Part shown: positions 1-6,972 of the stretch, piece after piece
How positions within the stretch are numbered: the stretch's first letter is position 1
How the letters are laid out: every line of letters starts with the position of its first letter
IMG/VR virus record: IMGVR_UViG_2700989366_000013
Direction: 5' to 3' (one strand)
DNA length: 6,972 nucleotides
DNA from: a virus
Lineage: Duplodnaviria > Heunggongvirae > Uroviricota > Caudoviricetes
The notes under the pieces: model-generated
What the model saw: the letters and a program-made list of their open reading frames with translations, nothing else
Database searches by the model: none
What the model was told of the DNA's origin: nothing
Position numbers and translations under genes: made by a program

Positions 1-1392
1 ATGACAACACCAGTCTGGCGTAATGATGACCTGGAAGGCGCTGTCATTGGCGCATTCTTTCTGCGTGGGGCAGATCATGAAGTGATGGATATTCTGATCA
101 CACTACCGGCGGACATTTTTTCTGTACGAGCGTATCGGGATATCTACACAGGCATCTGCAGACAGGCCCGTGTTTCAGGAGTGATTGACCCCGTGCTGTT
201 GTGTAATGAGATGCCGGAACTTGCCCCGGTGATTACTGATACCGGGCGTAAAACCTGGGTGAAGTCTTCACTGGAGCACTATGTTGCAGCGTTGCGGCGC
301 AATGCCGCACTGCGCGATGCAGAAAAAACACTGAATGAGGCGCTGCAGAAATTACGTGATGCGCATACCTGTGAAGCAGCTGAAGATGCCCTGAAGGATG
401 CGCAGAACATGATGGTCACACTGTCGACAGGAAAGGGCGTCATTCAGCCGGTACATATTGATGATGTGCTTCCGGAAGTGGTTGAGCGTGTTGAATGCCG
501 GAATCAGGGGCTGGAGAAATCCAGGACGTTGATGACCGGTATTGATGAACTGGACGCAAAAACAGGCGGTATGGAGCCCGGAGACCTGGTATTCATTGCC
601 GCCCGTCCTTCGATGGGGAAAACCGAACTTGCGCTGGACATCATCGACAAGGTGACTGAGCAGGGGCATGGTGTGCTTCTGTTCACCATGGAGATGGCGA
701 ACATCCAGATTGGTGAACGTATGGTGTCTGCGGCTGGAGGGATGCCAGTATCACGCCTGAAATCTGTGGCTCACTTTGAAGATGAAGACTGGGCGCGTTT
801 CTCACAAGGGGTGGGGCGGATGACCGGGCGCAATATCTGGATGGTGGACCAGGCGAACCTGACCATTGATGAGATATGCGCAACAACGAAACACCATCTG
901 ATTAAACATCCGGAAACGGCGCTGGTGGTGGTTGATTATCTCGGGCTGATAAAAACCCGAACCACGGGGCGTCATGACCTTGCCGTGGGTGAAATCTCAA
1001 AGGGGCTTAAAGGCCTGGCAAAATCCGGTGGTTTTCCGTTGATTGCGCTGAGCCAGCTCTCCCGCGGTGTGGAGTCCAGACCCAATAAACGTCCCATGAA
1101 CTCAGACCTGAAAAATTCCGGAGAAATAGAGGCGGATGCAGACATCATTCTGATGCTTTACAGGGATGAAGTGTACAACCCGGATACACAGGCTACAGGC
1201 ATAGCAGAAATTAATATCACGAAACAACGTAACGGTTCTCTGGGGACGATTTACCGGCGTTTTTATAACGGACATTTTCTGCCTGTGGACCAGGAAAGCG
1301 CACAGGTTCTTTCCACCCCAATGCGGCAGCCCCAGCCGCGCAGATACAGCAATACACGTACCGACAGCAGTAAGATGGAGCGTTTCTTTTGA
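1..1392 (+). CDS. DnaB-family replicative DNA helicase, phage-encoded
   Basis: 463-aa ORF. N-terminal segment resembles the DnaB N-terminal domain (DDLEGAVIGAFFL...ILITLPADIF). Walker A P-loop FIAARPSMGKTELALD, Walker B-like ALVVVDYLGLI, and the DnaB C-terminal motif block SQLSRGVESRPNKRPMNSDLKNSGEIEADADIILMLYRDEVY are present. The ATG sits at window position 1, so the true start could lie upstream. Confidence 0.85.
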   Translation: MTTPVWRNDDLEGAVIGAFFLRGADHEVMDILITLPADIFSVRAYRDIYTGICRQARVSGVIDPVLLCNEMPELAPVITDTGRKTWVKSSLEHYVAALRRNAALRDAEKTLNEALQKLRDAHTCEAAEDALKDAQNMMVTLSTGKGVIQPVHIDDVLPEVVERVECRNQGLEKSRTLMTGIDELDAKTGGMEPGDLVFIAARPSMGKTELALDIIDKVTEQGHGVLLFTMEMANIQIGERMVSAAGGMPVSRLKSVAHFEDEDWARFSQGVGRMTGRNIWMVDQANLTIDEICATTKHHLIKHPETALVVVDYLGLIKTRTTGRHDLAVGEISKGLKGLAKSGGFPLIALSQLSRGVESRPNKRPMNSDLKNSGEIEADADIILMLYRDEVYNPDTQATGIAEINITKQRNGSLGTIYRRFYNGHFLPVDQESAQVLSTPMRQPQPRRYSNTRTDSSKMERFF

Positions 1393-1403
1393 ACAACCAG
1401 ACA

Positions 1404-1646
1404 ATGACTTTTACCTCTGAACAATTGCGTAAACACGCGCAGGAAATGTTGCGACAGGCGGAACAACTGGAAAAAACAGGTGTAACAAAAGATGCCATTC
1501 GTCGGGATATGGTGCCAGCGCTCAGGGAACTGATGCAGGCGAAACATCGCGCACAAAAAGCGGTGGATGAGCTCGTTGATTGTGTGGCAGAGCTGGAAAC
1601 CAAAGTTGGAAAGTTTGAAAAAATGGTGCAGGAGGTGCTGCGCTGA
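1404..1646 (+). CDS. small hypothetical phage protein, about 80 aa, predicted coiled coil
   Basis: The ORF track starts at a TTG (1389); the first ATG is at 1404 (MTFTSEQLRK...). Charged, heptad-like sequence (QAEQLEKT...AVDELVDCVAELETKVGKFEKMVQEVLR). Its stop TGA (1644-1646) shares the A with the rusA ATG (1646-1648), and an AGGAGG lies at 1630-1635, consistent with translational coupling. No recognisable domain. Confidence 0.45.
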   Translation: MTFTSEQLRKHAQEMLRQAEQLEKTGVTKDAIRRDMVPALRELMQAKHRAQKAVDELVDCVAELETKVGKFEKMVQEVLR

Positions 1647-2017
1647 TGCGCCATGAGTTTATTTTACCTTATCCGCCGACGGTGAATACTTACTGGCGAC
1701 GTCGTGGCAGCACATATTTTGTATCAAAAGTTGGTGAGCGTTATCGCCGTGATGTGACGCTAATTGTTCGCCAGCAGCGGCTGAAATTAAACCTGTCCGG
1801 AAGGCTGGCGATAAAGATTATTGCAGAGCCACCGGATAAGCGCCGTCGTGACCTGGACAATATCCTGAAAGCACCACTGGATGCGCTGACGCATGCCGGA
1901 CTACTCATAGACGACGAGCAGTTTGATGAAATCAATATTGTGCGCGGTCAGCTCGTTCCTGGTGGGCGACTGGGCGTGAAGATTTATGAAATCACAGGTG
2001 ATAACGATGGCGCGTGA
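1646..2017 (+). CDS. rusA: RusA-family Holliday junction resolvase (crossover junction endodeoxyribonuclease)
   Basis: 123-aa ORF with the RusA family signature ([12 protein letters not shown]..., [27 protein letters not shown]) and the typical size and position for a lambdoid nin-region rusA. Confidence 0.85.
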
Positions 2018-2393
2018 TATTCAGCAGGTTATGGAACGGTGGGGGGCTTGGGCTGCAAACACTCATGAAGATGTATCCTGGGCGTCGATCGCTGCTGGTT
2101 TTAAAGGGTTAATTCCGTCGAAAGTGAAATCACGCCCTCAGTGTTCTGATGATGATGCAATGATAATTTGTGGCTGTATGGCCCGGTTGAACAAGAAAAA
2201 TCAGGATTTGCACGATTTGCTGGTGGATTATTACGTAGGTGGAATGACTTTTATGAGTCTGGCACGGAAACATGGGTGTTCGGATACCTGTATTGGCAAG
2301 CGCCTGCAGAAAGCGGAAGGGGTTATTGATGGCATGTTGATGATGCTTGATATCCGGCTGGAGATGGACAGATACGTAGAACGAATTATGTAG
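2007..2393 (+). CDS. late-gene antitermination protein Q (QuuD / Q21-like type)
   Basis: [38 protein letters not shown]...[18 protein letters not shown]...[23 protein letters not shown]... resembles, from memory, the Q-type antiterminators of DLP12/Stx-type lambdoid phages. Start chosen at ATG 2007 because AGGTG (1996-2000) lies 6 nt upstream; an in-frame ATG at 1986 is an alternative. It overlaps the rusA 3' end and is immediately followed by a promoter-like element. Confidence 0.6.
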
Positions 2394-2397
2394 GTGC

Positions 2398-2427
2398 TTG
2401 ACCAGACACATTGTCCGGGGCTATATT
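2398..2427 (+). promoter_or_regulatory. candidate late promoter (pR'-like) immediately downstream of Q
   Basis: TTGACC (2398-2403), 18-nt spacer, TATATT (2422-2427), beginning 5 nt after the Q stop codon. This is the expected position of pR' and the qut site in lambdoid phages. Confidence 0.35.
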
Positions 2428-2480
2428 CCTCACGCGCCAGCAAAATCTGGCGTCGGGATTGGAACCCCGGATAGAGACCG

Positions 2481-2503
2481 CGACAGACACACGCCGCGAG
2501 CGT
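2481..2503 (+). terminator. intrinsic terminator (tR'-like) after a short leader
   Basis: Hairpin ACACGC (2481-2486) / GCGTGT (2492-2497) with 5-nt loop, followed by TTTTTATT. It lies about 60 nt downstream of the candidate -10. Confidence 0.45.
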
Positions 2504-2702
2504 GTTTTTTATTGTCGTATGCACGCGCACATCTGAATTATGGTGGGGCGCATGGGGGAGCTGAAAAGCTCGCCGGTCGGTTTCCCGGTAGTTCCAACCC
2601 TGTGCGTCTCACCACCCGATGATTGGAACCTGACGGTGTTGACAGTTTCAGGTTTGCAGTTTACATTTCCCCGCGGTGCTCAAAACACCTCGAAAGCGGT
2701 AT

Positions 2703-2730
2703 CCACACCCGATAGCCATGTGGTTTTTTT
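2703..2730 (+). terminator. weak second terminator-like hairpin plus T-run
   Basis: CCACA (2703-2707) / TGTGG (2719-2723) with 11-nt loop, then TTTTTTT (2724-2730). Short stem, so low confidence. It sits inside the N-terminal extension of the 2676 ORF call, which argues against that start. Confidence 0.25.
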
Positions 2731-2873
2731 GTGTCCAGAATTCTTGGTTTATGACCGGGTGTGCGGCTAATACAATACCAGCAATGGAAATACGCCCGCC
2801 GACTTTCGACGGTTTTGAGCGCCCGGTCACCCTCTCAAAAGGGGTAAATCAAAATATTCGAAAGGACATGTCT

Positions 2874-3437
2874 ATGAATCGCACGTCTATTGAAAAACTC
2901 CCGTCACTTACGCATAACCATCTTCCTGTCATGACAACAGAGCTGCTGGCTGATTTGTACGGAACAGAGCGCCAGCGTTTGACAAACAATTTCAATCGAA
3001 ACAAAGAACGGTTTATAGAAGGTAAACATTTTTTCCTGATAGAAGGTGATGCGTTACGAGAGTTGAAGAACGAAAACTCTTTAAGAGTTTCTGTGAAAAT
3101 TGCCCGTAACGTTCGCTCCCTCATCCTCTGGACAGAACGTGGCGCAGCCCGTCACGCCAAAATGCTCGAAACCGATCAGGCGTGGGAAGTGTTCGAAAAA
3201 CTGGAAGACTGTTATTTCAACCAGAAACAGCCACCAGCGGCACAAAACACATCTATCGAAAATGATGGATGCGCATTACTGAGCCACTTCGATAAACACG
3301 GTCAGGTTGAGTTCACGGAAAAGGTACCCGCCGATGCGATGGTATGTACTCTGGAACGGTTTAAATTTTATCTGGAGCAACACGGGTGGATCGTTGCCCG
3401 TAAAGAGCAACTGGTGGAGCGGTTGATGCGGTTTTAA
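2874..3437 (+). CDS. ORF6N-domain protein (phage antirepressor-like / DNA-binding), about 187 aa
   Basis: The segment LPVMTTELLADLYGTERQRLTNNFNRNKERFIEGKHFFLIEGDALRELK matches the recalled ORF6N-domain pattern (L..LYG.....L...RN.ERF....F.L). Start set at ATG 2874 with AAAGGA (2861-2866) 7 nt upstream; ATG 2868 is in frame two codons earlier. The longer 2676 start would run through a hairpin and T-run and lacks an RBS. Confidence 0.6.
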   Translation: MNRTSIEKLPSLTHNHLPVMTTELLADLYGTERQRLTNNFNRNKERFIEGKHFFLIEGDALRELKNENSLRVSVKIARNVRSLILWTERGAARHAKMLETDQAWEVFEKLEDCYFNQKQPPAAQNTSIENDGCALLSHFDKHGQVEFTEKVPADAMVCTLERFKFYLEQHGWIVARKEQLVERLMRF

Positions 3438-3512
3438 AAATTTTTTCCGAAAACTTTACGATCGTAAAAAGTTGAATATCCTGTTAAGAGTGGTTACTAC
3501 GCCACACAGCTT

Positions 3513-3539
3513 AAACCCGCCGATGAGCGGGTTTTTTTA
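3513..3539 (+). terminator. intrinsic terminator downstream of the ORF6N-domain gene
   Basis: AAACCCGC (3513-3520) / GCGGGTTT (3527-3534) with 6-nt loop CGATGA, running into a 7-T tract (3532-3538). Confidence 0.55.
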
Positions 3540-3588
3540 TACCTGAAAAACGGCACAGGACGTTAAACGTGCTGGTGGTCAGATGAGT

Positions 3589-3617
3589 TTGCAGATGTGA
3601 TGACATATGGTTATTAT
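3589..3617 (+). promoter_or_regulatory. possible promoter for the tRNA cluster
   Basis: TTGCAG (3589-3594), 17-nt spacer, TATTAT (3612-3617), about 10 nt before the first tRNA. The -35 match is weak. Confidence 0.2.
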
Positions 3618-3626
3618 TCTGCCTCC

Positions 3627-3703
3627 GGCCCTTTAGCTCAGTTGGTCAGAGCGAGCGACTCATAATCGCCAGGTCGCTGGTTCAAGTCCAGCAAGGGCCA
3701 CCA
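3627..3703 (+). tRNA. tRNA-Ile2 (anticodon CAU, lysidine type; ileX/ileZ-like); elongator tRNA-Met not formally excluded
   Basis: 77 nt including CCA. Hand-folded cloverleaf: acceptor GGCCCTT/AAGGGCC, D-stem GCTC/GAGC, anticodon loop CTCATAA, T-arm GCTGG-TTCAAGT-CCAGC. Sequence closely resembles E. coli ileX as recalled. Confidence 0.85.
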
Positions 3704-3704
3704 A

Positions 3705-3781
3705 CCACCACTAGCTCATCCGGATAGAGCATCAACCTTCTAAGTTGACGGTGCGAGGTTCGAGTCCTCGGTGGTGGGCCA
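3705..3781 (+). tRNA. tRNA-Arg (anticodon UCU, reads AGA)
   Basis: 77 nt including CCA. Acceptor CCACCAC/GTGGTGG, anticodon stem TCAAC/GTTGA with loop CTTCTAA, T-arm CGAGG-TTCGAGT-CCTCG. Begins 1 nt after the previous tRNA. Confidence 0.85.
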
Positions 3782-3783
3782 GC

Positions 3784-3859
<76 letters not shown>

Positions 3860-3862
3860 TAT

Positions 3863-3937
<75 letters not shown>

Positions 3938-4195
3938 GCGAGATTTGAGACGAAGGTTGTTATTTGCACTGACACAATATTGTGTGGGAATGTCTGACTC
4001 CTTACCATCTCCTGTTCTGTGATGTTGTTTTGTTGCAGTTCCAGTGCTCTTTTTTCAGCACCAGAATGGTGCATTGTCGGTCAGGTTACGTAGTGAACCT
4101 CTGGCAGGGGACTGATGATTCATCATTCTGGTGTTGTAAATATCTCTTCGGACAACTTACAAAATATTCTAAGCAAACCCCGGGAACACACTCTT

Positions 4196-4219
4196 AACTG
4201 CCTTGGCTGGCGGTTTTTT
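4196..4219 (+). terminator. candidate intrinsic terminator
   Basis: AACTGCC (4196-4202) / GGCGGTT (4209-4215) with one G-U pair and 6-nt loop, followed by TTTTTT (4214-4219). It starts within the stop codon of the 3982-4197 ORF. Confidence 0.35.
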
Positions 4220-4550
4220 GTACAGCGCTCGGTATGTGTGAGCTGGAAATCAGATTTTGCATGGACTGGAATCATGCTGTTATTTAGGGGCGAAGAACTG
4301 GCTTTTTCTTCCGCCTTCTCACCAGTAACGATTAGAAAAATAATGAAATGCCCCCCTCCGGGGAGGAGGACCGAAGAAAAAAGGCCCCGCCAGCAAAAAC
4401 ATTGGGGATGAACAGCTTTCGCTACTCAGATTGCTGGCGGGTAAAGTTCCTCATGAATTAAGAATGCTACGCGATCTTTTTTAATGGAAATGAAAATTAT
4501 TGTCAATTAGTCGTGCGTGTTTTTTCATACAATATTGGTAAAGGTGATTC

Positions 4551-4587
4551 AGGCCATCAGAGTTTTGCTGATGGCCTTTTTTCTTTC
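4551..4587 (+). terminator. strong intrinsic terminator in an ORF-free region
   Basis: Perfect 10-bp stem AGGCCATCAG (4551-4560) / CTGATGGCCT (4568-4577) with 7-nt loop, followed by TTTTTTCTTT. There is no T-run on the opposite strand, so it is + strand specific. Confidence 0.55.
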
Positions 4588-4845
4588 CGATAGCACAGGT
4601 CTGTCGGGGGGAAAACGTTTTTTGTACATTGTGGATTTTTACATGCTGATATGATTTATTTTCAATTAAATCAATTAGATATGACCTTGCCTTTAATTTC
4701 ACTAATGAAAGTTTGGGGGTGAGGTAACGCTATAAGCGTAGAGAATTCGGTGTATGTCGTGACCGTGTCATTTACAGCATTTTTGATGCCAGAAAATGTA
4801 CATTAACAGCAGAAAGCACCAGTGAGGGGGGTGCCCCTATTAAGT

Positions 4846-4851
4846 TGTCAA
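4846..4851 (-). promoter_or_regulatory. -35 half (TTGACA) of a predicted circle-junction promoter at the IS right end
   Basis: + strand TGTCAA at 4846-4851 is a perfect TTGACA on the - strand, 6 nt beyond the transposase stop. The next 17-35 nt on that strand (+ coordinates 4811-4829) contain no -10-like hexamer. Confidence 0.35.
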
Positions 4852-4856
4852 GCATG

Positions 4857-6053
4857 TTATGACCCCTGCGGGGTATAAAAAGTCCCGTCGCGCATCATGG
4901 CGAACAGAACGTCGCAGCGTCGTCTCGCCAGGGCGATAAGCGCCTGATTGTGTCGTTTTCCCTGACTCATTTTGCGGGTGTAGTAAGCCCTGGAGAGCGG
5001 ATCCCTGAGCGCGGCGAAGGCCGACAGGAACAACGCCCGTTTGAGAGCTTTATTACCCCGTCGCGAGGGATGCTCACCGCGTATTGACGAGCCGGATCGC
5101 CGAGTTACCGGCGCAAGGCCAGCATAAGCAGCGAGATGTGCGGCAGAGGCGAAGGCGCGGCAGGCGACCTCGGTGAGGAGTCTGGCTGCGGTCCTGACAC
5201 CGACTCCGGGCATACTGGTCAGGACCGGGTAAAGAGGGTGAGCAAGAACTCGCTGTTCTACCTCAAGCGCCACCTCGTCTCTTTGCTTACGCAGCGTGAT
5301 GAGCTGGAGTGCCAGACGTGGCAGTACTACGGCAGCGGCATTCGTGCCGGGAACGACGACGGTTTGTTCGGCCAGTGCCTGAGCTATGTCTGCTGCAAGG
5401 CGTTTACCCAGACGAGGCGCAAGTTTGCAGAGCTGGGCTGCCAGCTTCTTCTCACCCAGCGAAGCGAGTTTTTCTGGTGAGGGATATCGCTGGAGAAGAT
5501 CGAGTACCGCCGGGTGCTCAAGTCTCGGACCGAGAACGCGCTCCAGTGCCGGATGTATCTGGGTCAGAAGGCCGCGGATACGGTTGCTGGCCTGCGTTGT
5601 CTGTGCGGCAAGATCATCATCGAAGCCGCAGAGCATGGAGAGTTCGGCGATTTGCTCGTCAGCCAGTTTCAGCGTGCGTAGCGCGTGAGGCAGGGTACGG
5701 GCAGCTTCGGCAATGATGGCAGCGTCACGAGCATCAGTTTTAGCTTCACCGGCGTGTAAGTCGGCTATGCGGCGCATGGCCAGTCCAGGGAGGTATCCGA
5801 CAAGGACTCCTTCTGAGCGGGCAACGGCGACAGGTAACGCACCGATGGTAGCTGGCTGATCAACAACCAGCAGTATCTGACCATGTTGTTTCAGGTCAGA
5901 TATTAGCGACCTGAGTTTGTTTTCGTCGTTGGGTAATGCTTTATCGAACAGGCGTTTACCTGAACGATTAATGGCAACAGCGTGATGCGTATCTTTACCG
6001 ACATCAACGCCGATAAAGACCTGGACGGATTCGTAATCGCTGGATTCGGTCAT
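4857..6053 (-). CDS. IS110-family transposase/recombinase (DEDD RuvC-like N-terminal domain plus Tnp C-terminal domain), 398 aa
   Basis: N-terminus VFIGVDVGKDTHHAVAI (DEDD catalytic aspartates). C-terminal block MPGVGVRTAARLLTEV...AAYAGLAPVTRRSGSSIRGEHPSRRGNKALKRALFLSAFAAL...QGKRHNQALIALARRRCDVLFAMMRDGTFY is characteristic of IS110/IS116/IS900-type transposases. RBS GGGAGA on the - strand lies just upstream of the ATG at 6053. Confidence 0.9.
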   Translation of the reverse strand: MTESSDYESVQVFIGVDVGKDTHHAVAINRSGKRLFDKALPNDENKLRSLISDLKQHGQILLVVDQPATIGALPVAVARSEGVLVGYLPGLAMRRIADLHAGEAKTDARDAAIIAEAARTLPHALRTLKLADEQIAELSMLCGFDDDLAAQTTQASNRIRGLLTQIHPALERVLGPRLEHPAVLDLLQRYPSPEKLASLGEKKLAAQLCKLAPRLGKRLAADIAQALAEQTVVVPGTNAAAVVLPRLALQLITLRKQRDEVALEVEQRVLAHPLYPVLTSMPGVGVRTAARLLTEVACRAFASAAHLAAYAGLAPVTRRSGSSIRGEHPSRRGNKALKRALFLSAFAALRDPLSRAYYTRKMSQGKRHNQALIALARRRCDVLFAMMRDGTFYTPQGS

Positions 6054-6059
6054 TCTGTC

Positions 6060-6255
6060 TCCCTTGTATATGGGTTAACCAGATAACCACGGGGAGCAGG
6101 TACCGGCATCCACGTTACAGACGGTCCCGGCAAAAGTGCCTGACCTGACCCCTATTAGCGGTTACCAGCGCCCCACCAGACCCGGTGACATCACCCCCCG
6201 GATCATGGACGACTGGGGGCAGTAATCATGCCGGGTCTGGCTGGCTAACACCCCA
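6060..6255 (-). ncRNA. candidate IS110 bridge RNA in the transposase 5' leader
   Basis: About 195 nt, GC-rich, non-coding, between the - strand TATAAT (6255-6260) and the transposase RBS. Contains a perfect 10-bp long-range inverted repeat CCAGACCCGG (6176-6185) / CCGGGTCTGG (6231-6240) enclosing a nested C6/G5 stem (6194-6199 / 6215-6219). Position and size fit the IS110-group bridge RNA; no covariance-model support. Confidence 0.3.
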
Positions 6256-6260
6256 TTATA
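6255..6260 (-). promoter_or_regulatory. -10 half (TATAAT) of a predicted circle-junction promoter at the IS left end
   Basis: + strand ATTATA at 6255-6260 is a perfect TATAAT on the - strand. In the integrated state the position 17 nt upstream on that strand reads CCCGTT, not a -35. Confidence 0.35.
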
Positions 6261-6567
6261 AGGGGTACGAATAAAGTAACGGGGGTTCTTTTATTCTGTT
6301 ATATTGCATTTTTATTCACTTCGGTTTTGTCAGGCTTGCGGAATTAGCGAGCAGAGAGCGCCGTTCTGTTCACCAATAATCTAAATTACTCATCAAAATG
6401 GCTAATATATAATCTTGAAATTATTCTGAGAGTTTCAGAAAATAACAGCTGAAATAATCTCGCGCAAGACTGTAAATAGATTAAATTTTGTGGAAATATA
6501 ATAAGTGATCGCTTACACTACGCGACGAAATACTTTTTTGTTTTGGCGTTAAAAGGTTTTCTTTATT

Positions 6568-6972
6568 ATGTCCGTAATGTTACAAAGTTTAAATAACATT
6601 CGCACCCTCCGTGCGATGGCTCGCGAATTCTCCATTGACGTTCTTGAAGAAATGCTCGAAAAATTCAGGGTTGTCACTAAAGAAAGACGTGAAGAAGAAG
6701 AACAGCAGCAGCGTGAACTGGCTGAGCGTCAGGAAAAAATTAGCACCTGGCTGGAGCTGATGAAGGCTGACGGAATTAACCCGGAAGAGTTATTGGGTAA
6801 TAGCTCTGCTGCTGCACCACGCGCTGGTAAAAAACGCCAGCCGCGTCCGGCGAAATATAAATTCACCGATGTTAACGGTGAAACTAAAACCTGGACCGGT
6901 CAGGGCCGTACACCGAAGCCAATTGCTCAGGCGCTGGCAGAAGGTAAATCTCTCGACGATTTCCTGATCTAA
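6568..6972 (+). CDS. stpA: StpA, H-NS-family nucleoid-associated DNA-binding protein and RNA chaperone
   Basis: 134-aa [36 protein letters not shown]...[27 protein letters not shown] matches E. coli StpA as recalled, including the H-NS C-terminal DNA-binding motif TWTGQGRTP. Preceded by an AT-rich regulatory region of about 280 bp (6290-6567). Complete, with stop at 6970-6972. Confidence 0.9.

Follow-up and report, generated by a model that had tools for sequence, protein, structure and literature searches.

What becomes of a prophage whose DNA gives way, directly after its tRNA genes, to the neighbourhood of a host gene? This question is raised by the stretch of 6,972 nucleotides analysed here (IMG/VR virus record IMGVR_UViG_2700989366_000013; the window), in which the replication and Q-region genes of a lambdoid phage are followed by an insertion sequence (IS) and by stpA. 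The initial annotation, made from the letters of the sequence, had explained the arrangement by a deletion of the phage late region and adjacent host DNA, possibly associated with the IS. Sequence comparison of both sides identified a non-homologous new joint between the prophage and the alaE-stpA intergenic region, with breakpoints that could be mapped to the base. The DNA between the tRNA genes and the IS, previously described as about 900 bp and poor in open reading frames (ORFs), measures 888 bp (3938-4825), contains only short mechanically called ORFs and is a composite of phage DNA, a 4-bp filler and the alaE-stpA spacer (Table 1).

Table 1. Features of the right-hand part of the window (positions 3627-6972).
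Feature	Position	Strand	Basis
Phage tRNA cluster: Met/Ile-CAT, Arg-TCT, Thr-TGT, Gly-TCC	3627..3937	+	ARAGORN; Rfam tRNA matches
Phage non-coding DNA, corresponding to the gap between tRNA cluster and holin gene in intact relatives	3938..4611	+	Sequence comparison
G6 run; phage breakpoint and ISEc20 integration site	4606..4611	+	Occupied in L024
Filler AAAA, 4 bp at the joint, in neither parent	4612..4615	.	Base-by-base comparison
stpA-proximal piece of the alaE-stpA intergenic region, 210 bp	4616..4825	+	Equivalent to K-12 L001 4001-4210
ISEc20 (IS110 family)	4826..6285	-	99.66% to annotated ISEc20 of E. coli 1303
ISEc20 transposase	6053..4857	-	Pfam DEDD_Tnp_IS110 (PF01548) and Transposase_20 (PF02371)
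ISEc20 non-coding left end, 232 nt, with bridge-RNA-like guide segments	6285..6054	-	Guide matches; predicted fold
Native spacer, last 282 bp before stpA	6286..6567	+	6286-6972: 98.8-99.7% to K-12 and F9792
stpA (H-NS paralogue), intact, 134-aa ORF	6568..6972	+	Pfam Histone_HNS; exact protein in 94,082 collection blocks

By its sequence, the left part of the window is best described as a defective lambdoid prophage of the Shigella sonnei type. It contains a helicase, RusA, Q, an ORF6N protein and the four tRNAs, and the assignment of the Q-family antiterminator comes from a match of its 128-aa product to Pfam Phage_antitermQ, with the tRNA cluster next to it and likewise annotated in relatives. 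In the annotation of these relatives the first tRNA of the cluster is a tRNA-Ile. Positions 1-4611 are identical to the S. sonnei-type prophage loci (L004-L013) at 4609 of 4611 positions, and the prophage part shows 99.4% identity to E. coli CFSAN029787 (99.7% over 3938-4611). The S. sonnei-type prophage had already been broken by IS elements, one lying 115 bp upstream of the helicase gene and another, an IS4, after the portal gene. Two terminator-like hairpins occur in the phage non-coding part (4196-4215 and 4551-4577), and a sub-segment of it (4237-4586) is found again, at 84%, beside Rz/iss on large plasmids.

Phage homology ended at 4611 in every relative examined. In these relatives the start codon of the holin gene lies 6-7 bp past the equivalent of this position and is followed by lysozyme, Rz and terminase genes, and about 20 near-identical loci among the matches listed continue through holin, lysozyme, Rz, HNH, terminase and portal, that is, through 6-7 kb of late genes. 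The abrupt end of the prophage after the tRNA cluster, without lysis genes, had been noticed from the sequence and is confirmed by this stop just before the holin. Searches of the window by tblastn with holin, lysozyme and Rz, including positions 3938-4856, where pieces of lysis genes had been thought worth looking for, returned chance matches only (E >= 0.95). We rejected the idea that 4611 is the natural end of the phage, an attachment-site junction, because the near-identical prophages (about 20 loci, 99.9% identical, among the matches listed) read on past it into the holin gene. The homology stop before the holin therefore leaves this prophage copy with replication, Q, antirepressor-like and tRNA genes and with no lysis or virion genes after them.

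On the host side, K-12 and 11 other E. coli loci have alaE and stpA as divergent neighbours separated by a 668-bp spacer. The window has lost the alaE-proximal 167 bp of this spacer along with alaE itself; the absence of the expected neighbour, already remarked upon, was borne out by a tblastn search of the window with AlaE that gave no match below E = 3. The retained piece (4616-4825) is 93.8% identical to K-12 (L001 4001-4210) and 98.6% identical to F9792 (L014 3001-3214), and in each of the 5,420 E. coli genomes with any match the host homology sets in at 4616. The alignment to complete E. coli genomes proposed in the initial annotation thus shows where each parent breaks off, the alaE-stpA synteny picking up at 4616 and phage homology stopping at 4611. 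At the host break the native spacer reads ...CCGTAACGGCT up to the break and CGTTTTTTG beyond it.

The sequence across the joint is TGTCGGGGGGAAAACGTTTTTTGTAC, in which the AAAA filler creates the palindrome AAAACGTTTT. Compared base by base with the phage parents (L002, L006) and the host parents (L001, L014, L025-L034), the filler was absent from both, and no source for it was found in any of the fetched loci. The joint itself could be found neither in 5,426 complete E. coli genomes nor in the genome, metagenome and viral collections, the two ORFs that span it have no exact match on record, and neither a reciprocal product, nor a circle, nor a second example of the joint was found in the genomes and collections searched. 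Exact look-ups of a lineage-specific 98-aa ORF, pattern searches for the IS/spacer junction, megablast against phages and plasmids, and the genomic contexts of the helicase, ORF6N, transposase and StpA proteins likewise led to no genome with this joint.

The ISEc20 copy in the window interrupts a G-run that precedes the stpA start codon by 282 bp. It is identical at 1459 of 1459 positions to the copy in L024 (CP179952.1), and 99.66-100% identical to annotated ISEc20 copies, among them that of LC567822. In IS-free strains its two flanks adjoin each other apart from 4 bp, TGTT, and the comparison with such strains, which had been recommended, identified both flanks as native spacer. Because it lies 214 bp from the joint and is bordered on both sides by native spacer, this copy is a simple insertion. 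S. sonnei 53G carries 12 types of IS, ISEc20 among them, and for this element 13 chromosomal sites have been mapped across the species (PMC7373316); genomes with several copies exist (CP065611.1, CP179952.1). Two of the published sites (2,791,334 and 2,812,506), 21 kb apart, fall roughly in the stpA region, their coordinates being those of an IS-free reference and not safely assignable (PMC7373316).

We next consider how the two parents were arranged before they were joined. In S. sonnei-type chromosomes the helicase gene follows stpA on the same strand, 19.3 kb further downstream (L007 1-1120 corresponds to L025 19286-20405, plus strand), and with this order a joint from phage 4611 to spacer 4616 would be head-to-tail and not a deletion. 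The right end of a block of ~24-26 kb would then be linked to its own left end, in a tandem duplication or an excised circle, an interpretation for which our confidence falls just short of even. The source order would be alaE, spacer, stpA, ~19 kb of DNA (ygaP to csiD, ygaQ, a ypjA remnant and an IS), helicase through tRNAs, and holin, and the joint could have originated by unequal exchange between sister chromosomes or as an excised circle caught in the assembly. The prophage loci with 4609 of 4611 identical positions are all found in an S. sonnei context, the best E. coli match reaching ~96.5%, and once stpA precedes the prophage a single recombination yields the observed joint only as that of a circle or a duplication. 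However, the gene order of the source genome is assumed, Shigella chromosomes are heavily rearranged, with a left context that varies between strains (L005 versus L006), large tandem duplications are not stable and rarely become fixed in finished assemblies, and no locus with two helicase copies occurs among the matches listed. Nothing relevant on a duplication of the stpA region in S. sonnei was found in the literature. An intact relative of the prophage has yecE as its integration site, the integrase being at the opposite end, but this site is uninformative on the geometry because that relative is a mosaic phage with a different late region. If the joint is head-to-tail, the late genes and alaE could remain elsewhere in the genome, at the outer edges of the block; this concerns the geometry only and is compatible with the ISEc20 mechanism discussed below.

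The single deletion originally proposed, which would have removed the lysis and morphogenesis genes of the phage plus host DNA through alaE and 167 bp of the spacer, seems to us possible rather than probable. Both missing parts are indeed absent from the window, prophages in IS-rich Shigella are most commonly lost by deletion (PMC7373316), the orientations of the breakpoints fit the excision of a giant composite element bounded by the right end of an ISEc20 at the holin site and by the spacer's look-alike of a left end, and the PPompW prophages provide a real lysis-cassette deletion at an ISEc20 site. Such a deletion needs a prophage on the alaE side whose late genes point toward alaE, yet in all S. 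sonnei-type loci listed stpA separates alaE from the prophage, an order from which no deletion could produce this joint, and at least 2 further rearrangements would have been needed beforehand; moreover, the IS held responsible is not at the joint. What stands of the original proposal is that a new joint cuts the prophage before its lysis genes and the spacer 167 bp from alaE; the deletion itself is not established, given the upstream position of stpA. That stpA might natively adjoin phage genes in a different species or replicon, the situation which was said to speak against a deletion, turned out to be true in part: the DNA is of Shigella type and not of K-12 type, and in that background the prophage is a natural near-neighbour of stpA.

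Which machinery made the joint is a separate matter, and both breakpoints point to ISEc20. In L024 (CP179952.1) an ISEc20 lies between ...GTCTGTCGGGG and CGGGATATG, the start of the holin gene, in the same orientation as the window copy, and the phage breakpoint is this very site. Runs of G or C of at least 6 nt are rare in the 11.4 kb of window-type prophage, which has only 3, the breakpoint G6 among them, and only 0.24% of its positions lie within 1 nt of such a run. In the spacer, the heptamer GTAACGG matches the outer end of the ISEc20 left end (7/7) and ends 2 nt from the host break; of 32 7-mers from the IS ends, no other occurs in the 668 bp, and the background density of these 7-mers (0.77 per kb) gives a chance of ~1% for such proximity to the break. 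The suspected association with an IS is thus supported for the phage breakpoint, an ISEc20 site occupied in L024, but not for the visible copy, which stands off the joint.

The non-coding left end of ISEc20 is putatively of the bridge-RNA type. It contains the guide-like segments TAATAGGGG, equal to its own right end, GTAACG, complementary to the start of the left end, and GCCCCC and CGGGGGG, which match the phage G-run target, all of them placed in internal loops of two long predicted stem-loops (z = -2.2). The matches to these segments span only 6-7 nt, a length at which many 6-mers match by chance. An Rfam search of 6054-6285 matched no family.

Because the phage break falls on the G6 of an ISEc20 site and the host break 2 nt from the only IS-end 7-mer of the spacer, we propose that the joint was made by the ISEc20 recombinase, an IS110-family enzyme of the bridge-RNA type, and not by general recombination, a proposal on which we judge the evidence to be evenly balanced. 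The flank of a true ISEc20 target in the phage would have been joined to the flank of the left-end look-alike GTAACGG in the spacer, in a half-site reaction of the type lately described for IS110 elements, with enzyme and RNA supplied in trans by any of several ISEc20 copies, including the one 214 bp away. The polarity of the joint fits the arrangement left by an excision-type reaction of IS110 elements, as the kept phage DNA is the flank that lies beside the IS right end in L024 and, relative to the look-alike left end, the kept host DNA lies on the side of the flank. The reciprocal joint predicted by this scheme would link the spacer, ...AATATTCCGTAACGG, to CGGGATATGTATCAG or to an ISEc20 right end. 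Against the proposal, the joint carries 4 extra bases, AAAA, unlike the clean flank-core-flank product of a site-specific reaction, the host break is not flush with the 7-mer but 2-4 nt past it, the guide matches are short, and both breakpoint coincidences were noticed after the fact. No ISEc20 was found at the holin site of the window-type prophage in about 20 S. sonnei-type loci among the matches listed; the phage partner would therefore have been an empty target or a copy since lost. The more specific scenario, in which ISEc20 recombined the empty prophage target with a one-sided donor look-alike tens of kb away and left an IS-free joint, the natural footprint of an RNA-guided recombinase on a chromosome, we consider rather improbable.

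Illegitimate recombination at the G-run independent of any IS, by replication slippage, template switching or end joining, with the filler as a by-product of repair, is in our view unlikely. In its favour, 4 bp inserted without microhomology are typical of such events and not of site-specific recombination, the AAAA can be read as a short templated copy that completes AAAACGTTTT and extends a phage hairpin (4579-4615), and two private substitutions occur 230 bp away. This explanation must nevertheless accept two independent coincidences, of ~0.2% for the ISEc20 site and ~1% for the IS-end 7-mer, both with the right polarity. That the joint is an artefact of assembly or of chimeric reads is very unlikely; its uniqueness among all assemblies and collections searched and the unrecorded junction-spanning ORFs would be expected of an artefact, but the two sides have no repeat in common by which an assembler could be misled, and the flanking sequence is of high quality, with 2 substitutions and 0 indels in 4.6 kb including several homopolymers. 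Finally, we practically dismiss an exchange by homologous recombination between an ISEc20 at the holin site and another upstream of stpA. Copies sharing one orientation are known from sites of both kinds, but such an exchange would put the IS exactly at the joint, whereas the sequence has 214 bp of spacer and filler in between and native flanks on both sides of the IS.

Prophage remnants that keep some early or Q-region genes and have partly lost the late region are familiar from the cryptic lambdoid prophages DLP12, Rac and Qin of E. coli K-12, which remain at their original attachment sites. Unlike these, the window prophage continues from its cut end, at an IS target, into an unrelated host spacer. 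A parallel is offered by the PPompW prophages of E. coli O145:H28 (LC567822.1), in which RusA, Q and tRNAs are likewise present with no lysis cassette after them and the G-run at the joint is also an ISEc20 site, known in IS-occupied and IS-free forms (RM13514, NZ_CP006027.1), occupied in some strains and empty in six genomes. In PPompW, in contrast to the window, both breakpoints are intra-phage, the ~7 kb lost begin directly behind the tRNAs and end directly behind the HNH gene, no filler is present, and the terminase and head genes were kept; since the two sites in the parent sequence are long runs of G (G10 and G9), a 9-bp microhomology could explain that deletion.

For the mechanism, the comparison is with IS110-family bridge recombination as described for IS621 (Durrant et al. 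2024, PMC11208160), with which ISEc20 shares its family, a long non-coding left end and guide-like segments. According to a preprint, the boundaries at which natural IS110 elements recombine frequently agree with only one 7-bp donor half-site, and the products are partial circles, expansions and duplications (Hu et al. 2026, 10.64898/2026.08.14.744561). The window resembles these half-match boundaries in having a true target at one breakpoint and a 7-bp right-donor look-alike next to the other. It differs from them in that no IS is left at the joint, 4 non-templated bases are present and the half-site is 2-4 nt off. The setting corresponds to the IS-driven decay of Shigella genomes (Hawkey et al. 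2020, PMC7373316), as the background is IS-rich and of Shigella type and ISEc20 is resident there; that study, unlike the present analysis, counts IS insertions and gene loss, and its supplementary tables mention neither stpA nor alaE and give no account of this joint.

Taken by itself, the locus is a further instance of a decaying prophage and altered gene order in a Shigella-type genome rich in IS elements, that is, of ordinary IS-driven genome decay, though ISEc20 may itself have made the joint. From this locus the prophage copy would be able neither to lyse the cell nor to make particles, while Q, antirepressor-like, small-RNA and tRNA genes are retained. stpA, the gene of a global nucleoid protein, is left without alaE and the distal third of its upstream region and now stands behind an IS and a phage late-transcription unit, a new upstream context that could alter its regulation. 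If ISEc20 did make an IS-free joint between a target and a half-site, such scars would be searchable systematically, their signature being pairs of a G/C-run target and a 7-bp end look-alike at rearrangement joints, and the search would measure how far IS110 elements reshape genomes beyond their own insertions. Should the empty-target scenario prove true, IS110 elements would act in trans to reshape genomes by deletion, duplication or circularisation of large host segments, and would disarm prophages by removing their lysis genes.

Comparison of positions 3938-4856 with 5,426 complete E. coli genomes by megablast revealed a composite that splits cleanly into phage and host DNA. Positions 3938-4611 are phage DNA with 99.7% identity to strain CFSAN029787, where a class II holin gene begins 6 bp past the end of the homology, followed by lysozyme, lysis protein and terminase genes. 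Positions 4616-4825 are the alaE-stpA intergenic region (4001-4210 of the K-12 locus L001), and 4616 is the start of host homology in every matching E. coli genome. In the K-12 locus, 3833 is the end of alaE and 4502 the start of stpA; since the match begins only at 4001, the window lacks alaE and, of the 668-bp spacer, the first 167 bp. Base by base, phage ...GTCTGTCGGGGGG is followed by AAAA and then by host CGTTTTTTGTACATTG...; at the positions of this filler the phage parent has CGGG and the host parent GGCT, so that neither reads AAAA. This joint was found in no other assembly among the 5,426 genomes or the genome, metagenome and viral collections.

The initial annotation had described 3938-4856 as ORF-poor and devoid of lysis, structural and alaE genes, which the ORF list and tblastn bear out: AlaE and three lysis proteins from the closest prophage (holin, lysozyme, Rz) gave only chance matches across the whole window. 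The abrupt end of the prophage and the absence of alaE are confirmed; the stretch before the IS also includes part of the host spacer, and the IS is not at the joint. The reading as a deletion tied to the IS is partly supported. Window contents, derived from the ORF list, a tRNA scan and comparisons, are collected in the table.

Features of the window and of the PPompW joints
Feature	Position	Strand	Basis or remark
DnaB-type helicase	1-1392		ORF list and comparisons
Small ORF, RusA, Q antiterminator			in that order between the helicase and ORF6N genes
c4-a1b1	2421-2473		Rfam match above gathering score
isrK	2434-2510		Rfam match above gathering score
C4 antisense RNA	2536-2619		Rfam match above gathering score
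sRNA-Xcc1	2753-2836		Rfam match above gathering score
ORF6N-domain protein	2874-3437		
tRNA cluster (four tRNAs)	3627-3937		tRNA scan
IS110-family transposase	6053..4857	minus	
stpA	6568-6972		
PPompW joint with ISEc20	L045 (LC567822.1) 6473-8290		ISEc20 at joint in many strains
PPompW joint, IS-free	L058 (NZ_CP006027.1) 3150-3260		

The four RNA matches between Q and the ORF6N gene (2421-2836), just after Q, suggest a c4 antisense immunity module of the P1/P7 type that would control the antirepressor-like ORF6N gene downstream. The first tRNA (3627-3703) was called Met (anticodon CAT) by ARAGORN and the identical gene is annotated as tRNA-Ile in related prophages, the usual ambiguity for lysidine-modified CAT tRNAs. 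Large E. coli plasmids have copies of the 350-bp non-coding phage segment 4237-4586 at about 84% identity, with Rz/Rz1 fragments and iss immediately downstream (L060, NZ_AP021947.1, 1278-1621); the segment also occurs at unannotated chromosomal sites.

The element at 4826-6285 has 99.66% identity to the annotated ISEc20 of E. coli 1303 and 1459/1459 identity to the copy in CP179952.1. In IS-free strains its two flanks are adjacent, CACCAGTGAGGGG-TGTT-TTCTTTTATTC, and the window differs only by the absent TGTT; being contiguous there, they identify the window copy as a simple insertion within a G-run; stpA lies 282 bp downstream, and the phage/host joint is 214 bp away. These native flanks and the 214-bp distance rule out homologous recombination between IS copies as the origin of the joint. 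All E. coli alleles seen at the insertion point read GTGAGGGG-TGTT-TTCTTTT, with GTGATGGATGTTTTC in K-12; the window, without TGTT, reflects either a source-lineage allele with a longer G-run or an insertion that was not fully conservative. C/G runs host all 11 ISEc20 copies considered (ten fetched loci plus the window's own).

The phage breakpoint coincides with a landing site of ISEc20, and the host breakpoint is next to a sequence resembling an IS end. On the phage side, CP179952.1 has a second prophage, sharing window 4072-4611, in which an ISEc20 copy separates ...GTCTGTCGGGG from CGGGATATG, the holin start; it occupies the very G-run at which phage homology in the window breaks off and has the orientation of the window's copy. 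G/C runs of at least 6 number only three in 11.4 kb of this prophage, which puts 0.24% of positions no more than one base away from one. On the host side, the native spacer reads ...TTCCGTAACGGCT|CGTTTTTTG in 10 of 12 E. coli loci, the other two lacking a match to the search probe, and contains GTAACGG, which is also the outermost part of the IS left end (...AAAGTAACGGGGG). This is the only one of 32 terminal IS 7-mers (both ends, both strands) in the spacer and ends 2 nt from the break; given a background density of 0.77 per kb, the chance of one so near is about 1%. The polarity fits on both sides, with the retained phage DNA being the flank of the IS right end in CP179952.1 and the host DNA that was kept lying on the side of the look-alike left end that corresponds to a flank.

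This breakpoint pair suggests, short of proof, IS110 recombinase activity in trans; as the most likely mechanism, the ISEc20 recombinase would have joined the phage target to the spacer half-site. However, a clean site-specific exchange predicts neither the four extra bases nor the offset of 2-4 nt between the 7-mer and the break, and because of them IS-independent illegitimate recombination is a serious rival. There are three possible readings of the filler: the adjacent TTTT could have been copied, a snap-back copy could have been made across the phage hairpin 4579-4615, or the AAAA could be native spacer sequence, with a 15-bp deletion in addition. Within 4579-4625 it completes a 10-bp palindrome (AAAACGTTTT) and extends the phage hairpin to a 15-pair stem followed by CGTTTTTTGT, so that the joint scores as intrinsic-terminator-like on the plus strand, in the orientation that a late transcript of the phage would meet.

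The ISEc20 left end (6054-6285, minus strand; 232 nt, non-coding) may encode a bridge RNA. It contains TAATAGGGG, identical to the IS right end, GTAACG, complementary to the left-end start, and GCCCCC and CGGGGGG, which match the phage target CCCGCCCCCCGAC. The predicted fold has two long stem-loops (MFE -87 kcal/mol, z = -2.2), and these guide-like segments fall in their internal loops, which would resemble the target- and donor-binding loops that the IS621 bridge RNA reportedly has. An Rfam scan of 6054-6285 matched no family. According to a 2026 preprint (10.64898/2026.08.14.744561), natural IS110 elements often have boundaries matching one 7-bp donor half only, and generate partial circles, local expansions and tandem duplications.

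A parallel case is PPompW (O145:H28), in which RusA, Q and three tRNAs are followed by 83 bp, ISEc20 in the same orientation, 275 bp and the small terminase subunit. In an intact O157 relative (NZ_CP038319.1, L057 2000-9060) these flanks are about 7 kb apart, separated by TerB, esterase, holin, lysozyme, Rz and HNH genes, and the parental site on each side is a G-run (G10 and G9). The same deletion is present in six complete genomes that have no IS at the joint, which there is a G7 run; IS-free joints that remove the lysis cassette therefore do occur at ISEc20 sites, with G-run microhomology as an alternative explanation of the PPompW deletion.

Many chromosomes, HE616528.1 (S. sonnei 53G) among them, encode the exact helicase protein in the same context, and the exact transposase is multi-copy in IpaH-carrying genomes. 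Window 1-4611 differs from S. sonnei-type loci only at 4374 and 4385, whereas identity to the best-matching complete E. coli genome is only about 96.5%. ISEc20 is among the IS types of S. sonnei 53G, with 13 chromosomal sites mapped in the species (Hawkey et al., PMC7373316). Taken together, these findings make it almost certain that the source is S. sonnei or very closely related to it. The two substitutions, A and C where 19/19 related loci have T and A, occur in the window only; they lie 11 bp from each other in non-coding DNA, at a distance of 230 bp from the joint. In S. sonnei-type chromosomes (L004-L012, 8657-9885 and about 19950-21280) other IS elements have already interrupted the prophage: one of the IS3 family lies 115 bp upstream of the helicase gene and joins it to a ypjA remnant, and one of the IS4 family follows the portal gene. 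The left context in strain CP032523.1, an integrase, is unlike that of 53G.

An S. sonnei-type prophage locus (L007 1-1120) aligns to the stpA-side locus (L025 19286-20405, plus strand), which places stpA upstream of the helicase gene at a distance of 19.3 kb, in the order alaE(-), spacer, stpA(+), ygaP ... csiD(-), ygaQ(-), ypjA remnant, an IS, helicase(+) ... tRNAs, holin(+). In this order, phage 4611 next to spacer 4616 is a head-to-tail joint of a block of about 24-26 kb and cannot be a deletion; it would be a tandem duplication or an excised circle. The two geometries are about equally likely, the head-to-tail one being slightly ahead of a deletion. A deletion is possible if the source carried the prophage beyond alaE with its late genes pointing toward alaE; Shigella genomes are rearranged, but none of the loci recovered has that order.

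The phenomenon is of a known kind, IS-associated prophage decay in Shigella. stpA is left without alaE and without the distal third of its upstream region, and the prophage copy would be lysis-defective at this locus. The path of a late transcript holds terminator-like hairpins at 4196-4215 and 4551-4577 besides the new one at the joint, and the Q-dependent late promoter, if active, would direct transcription toward the spacer, the IS (antisense to the transposase) and stpA.
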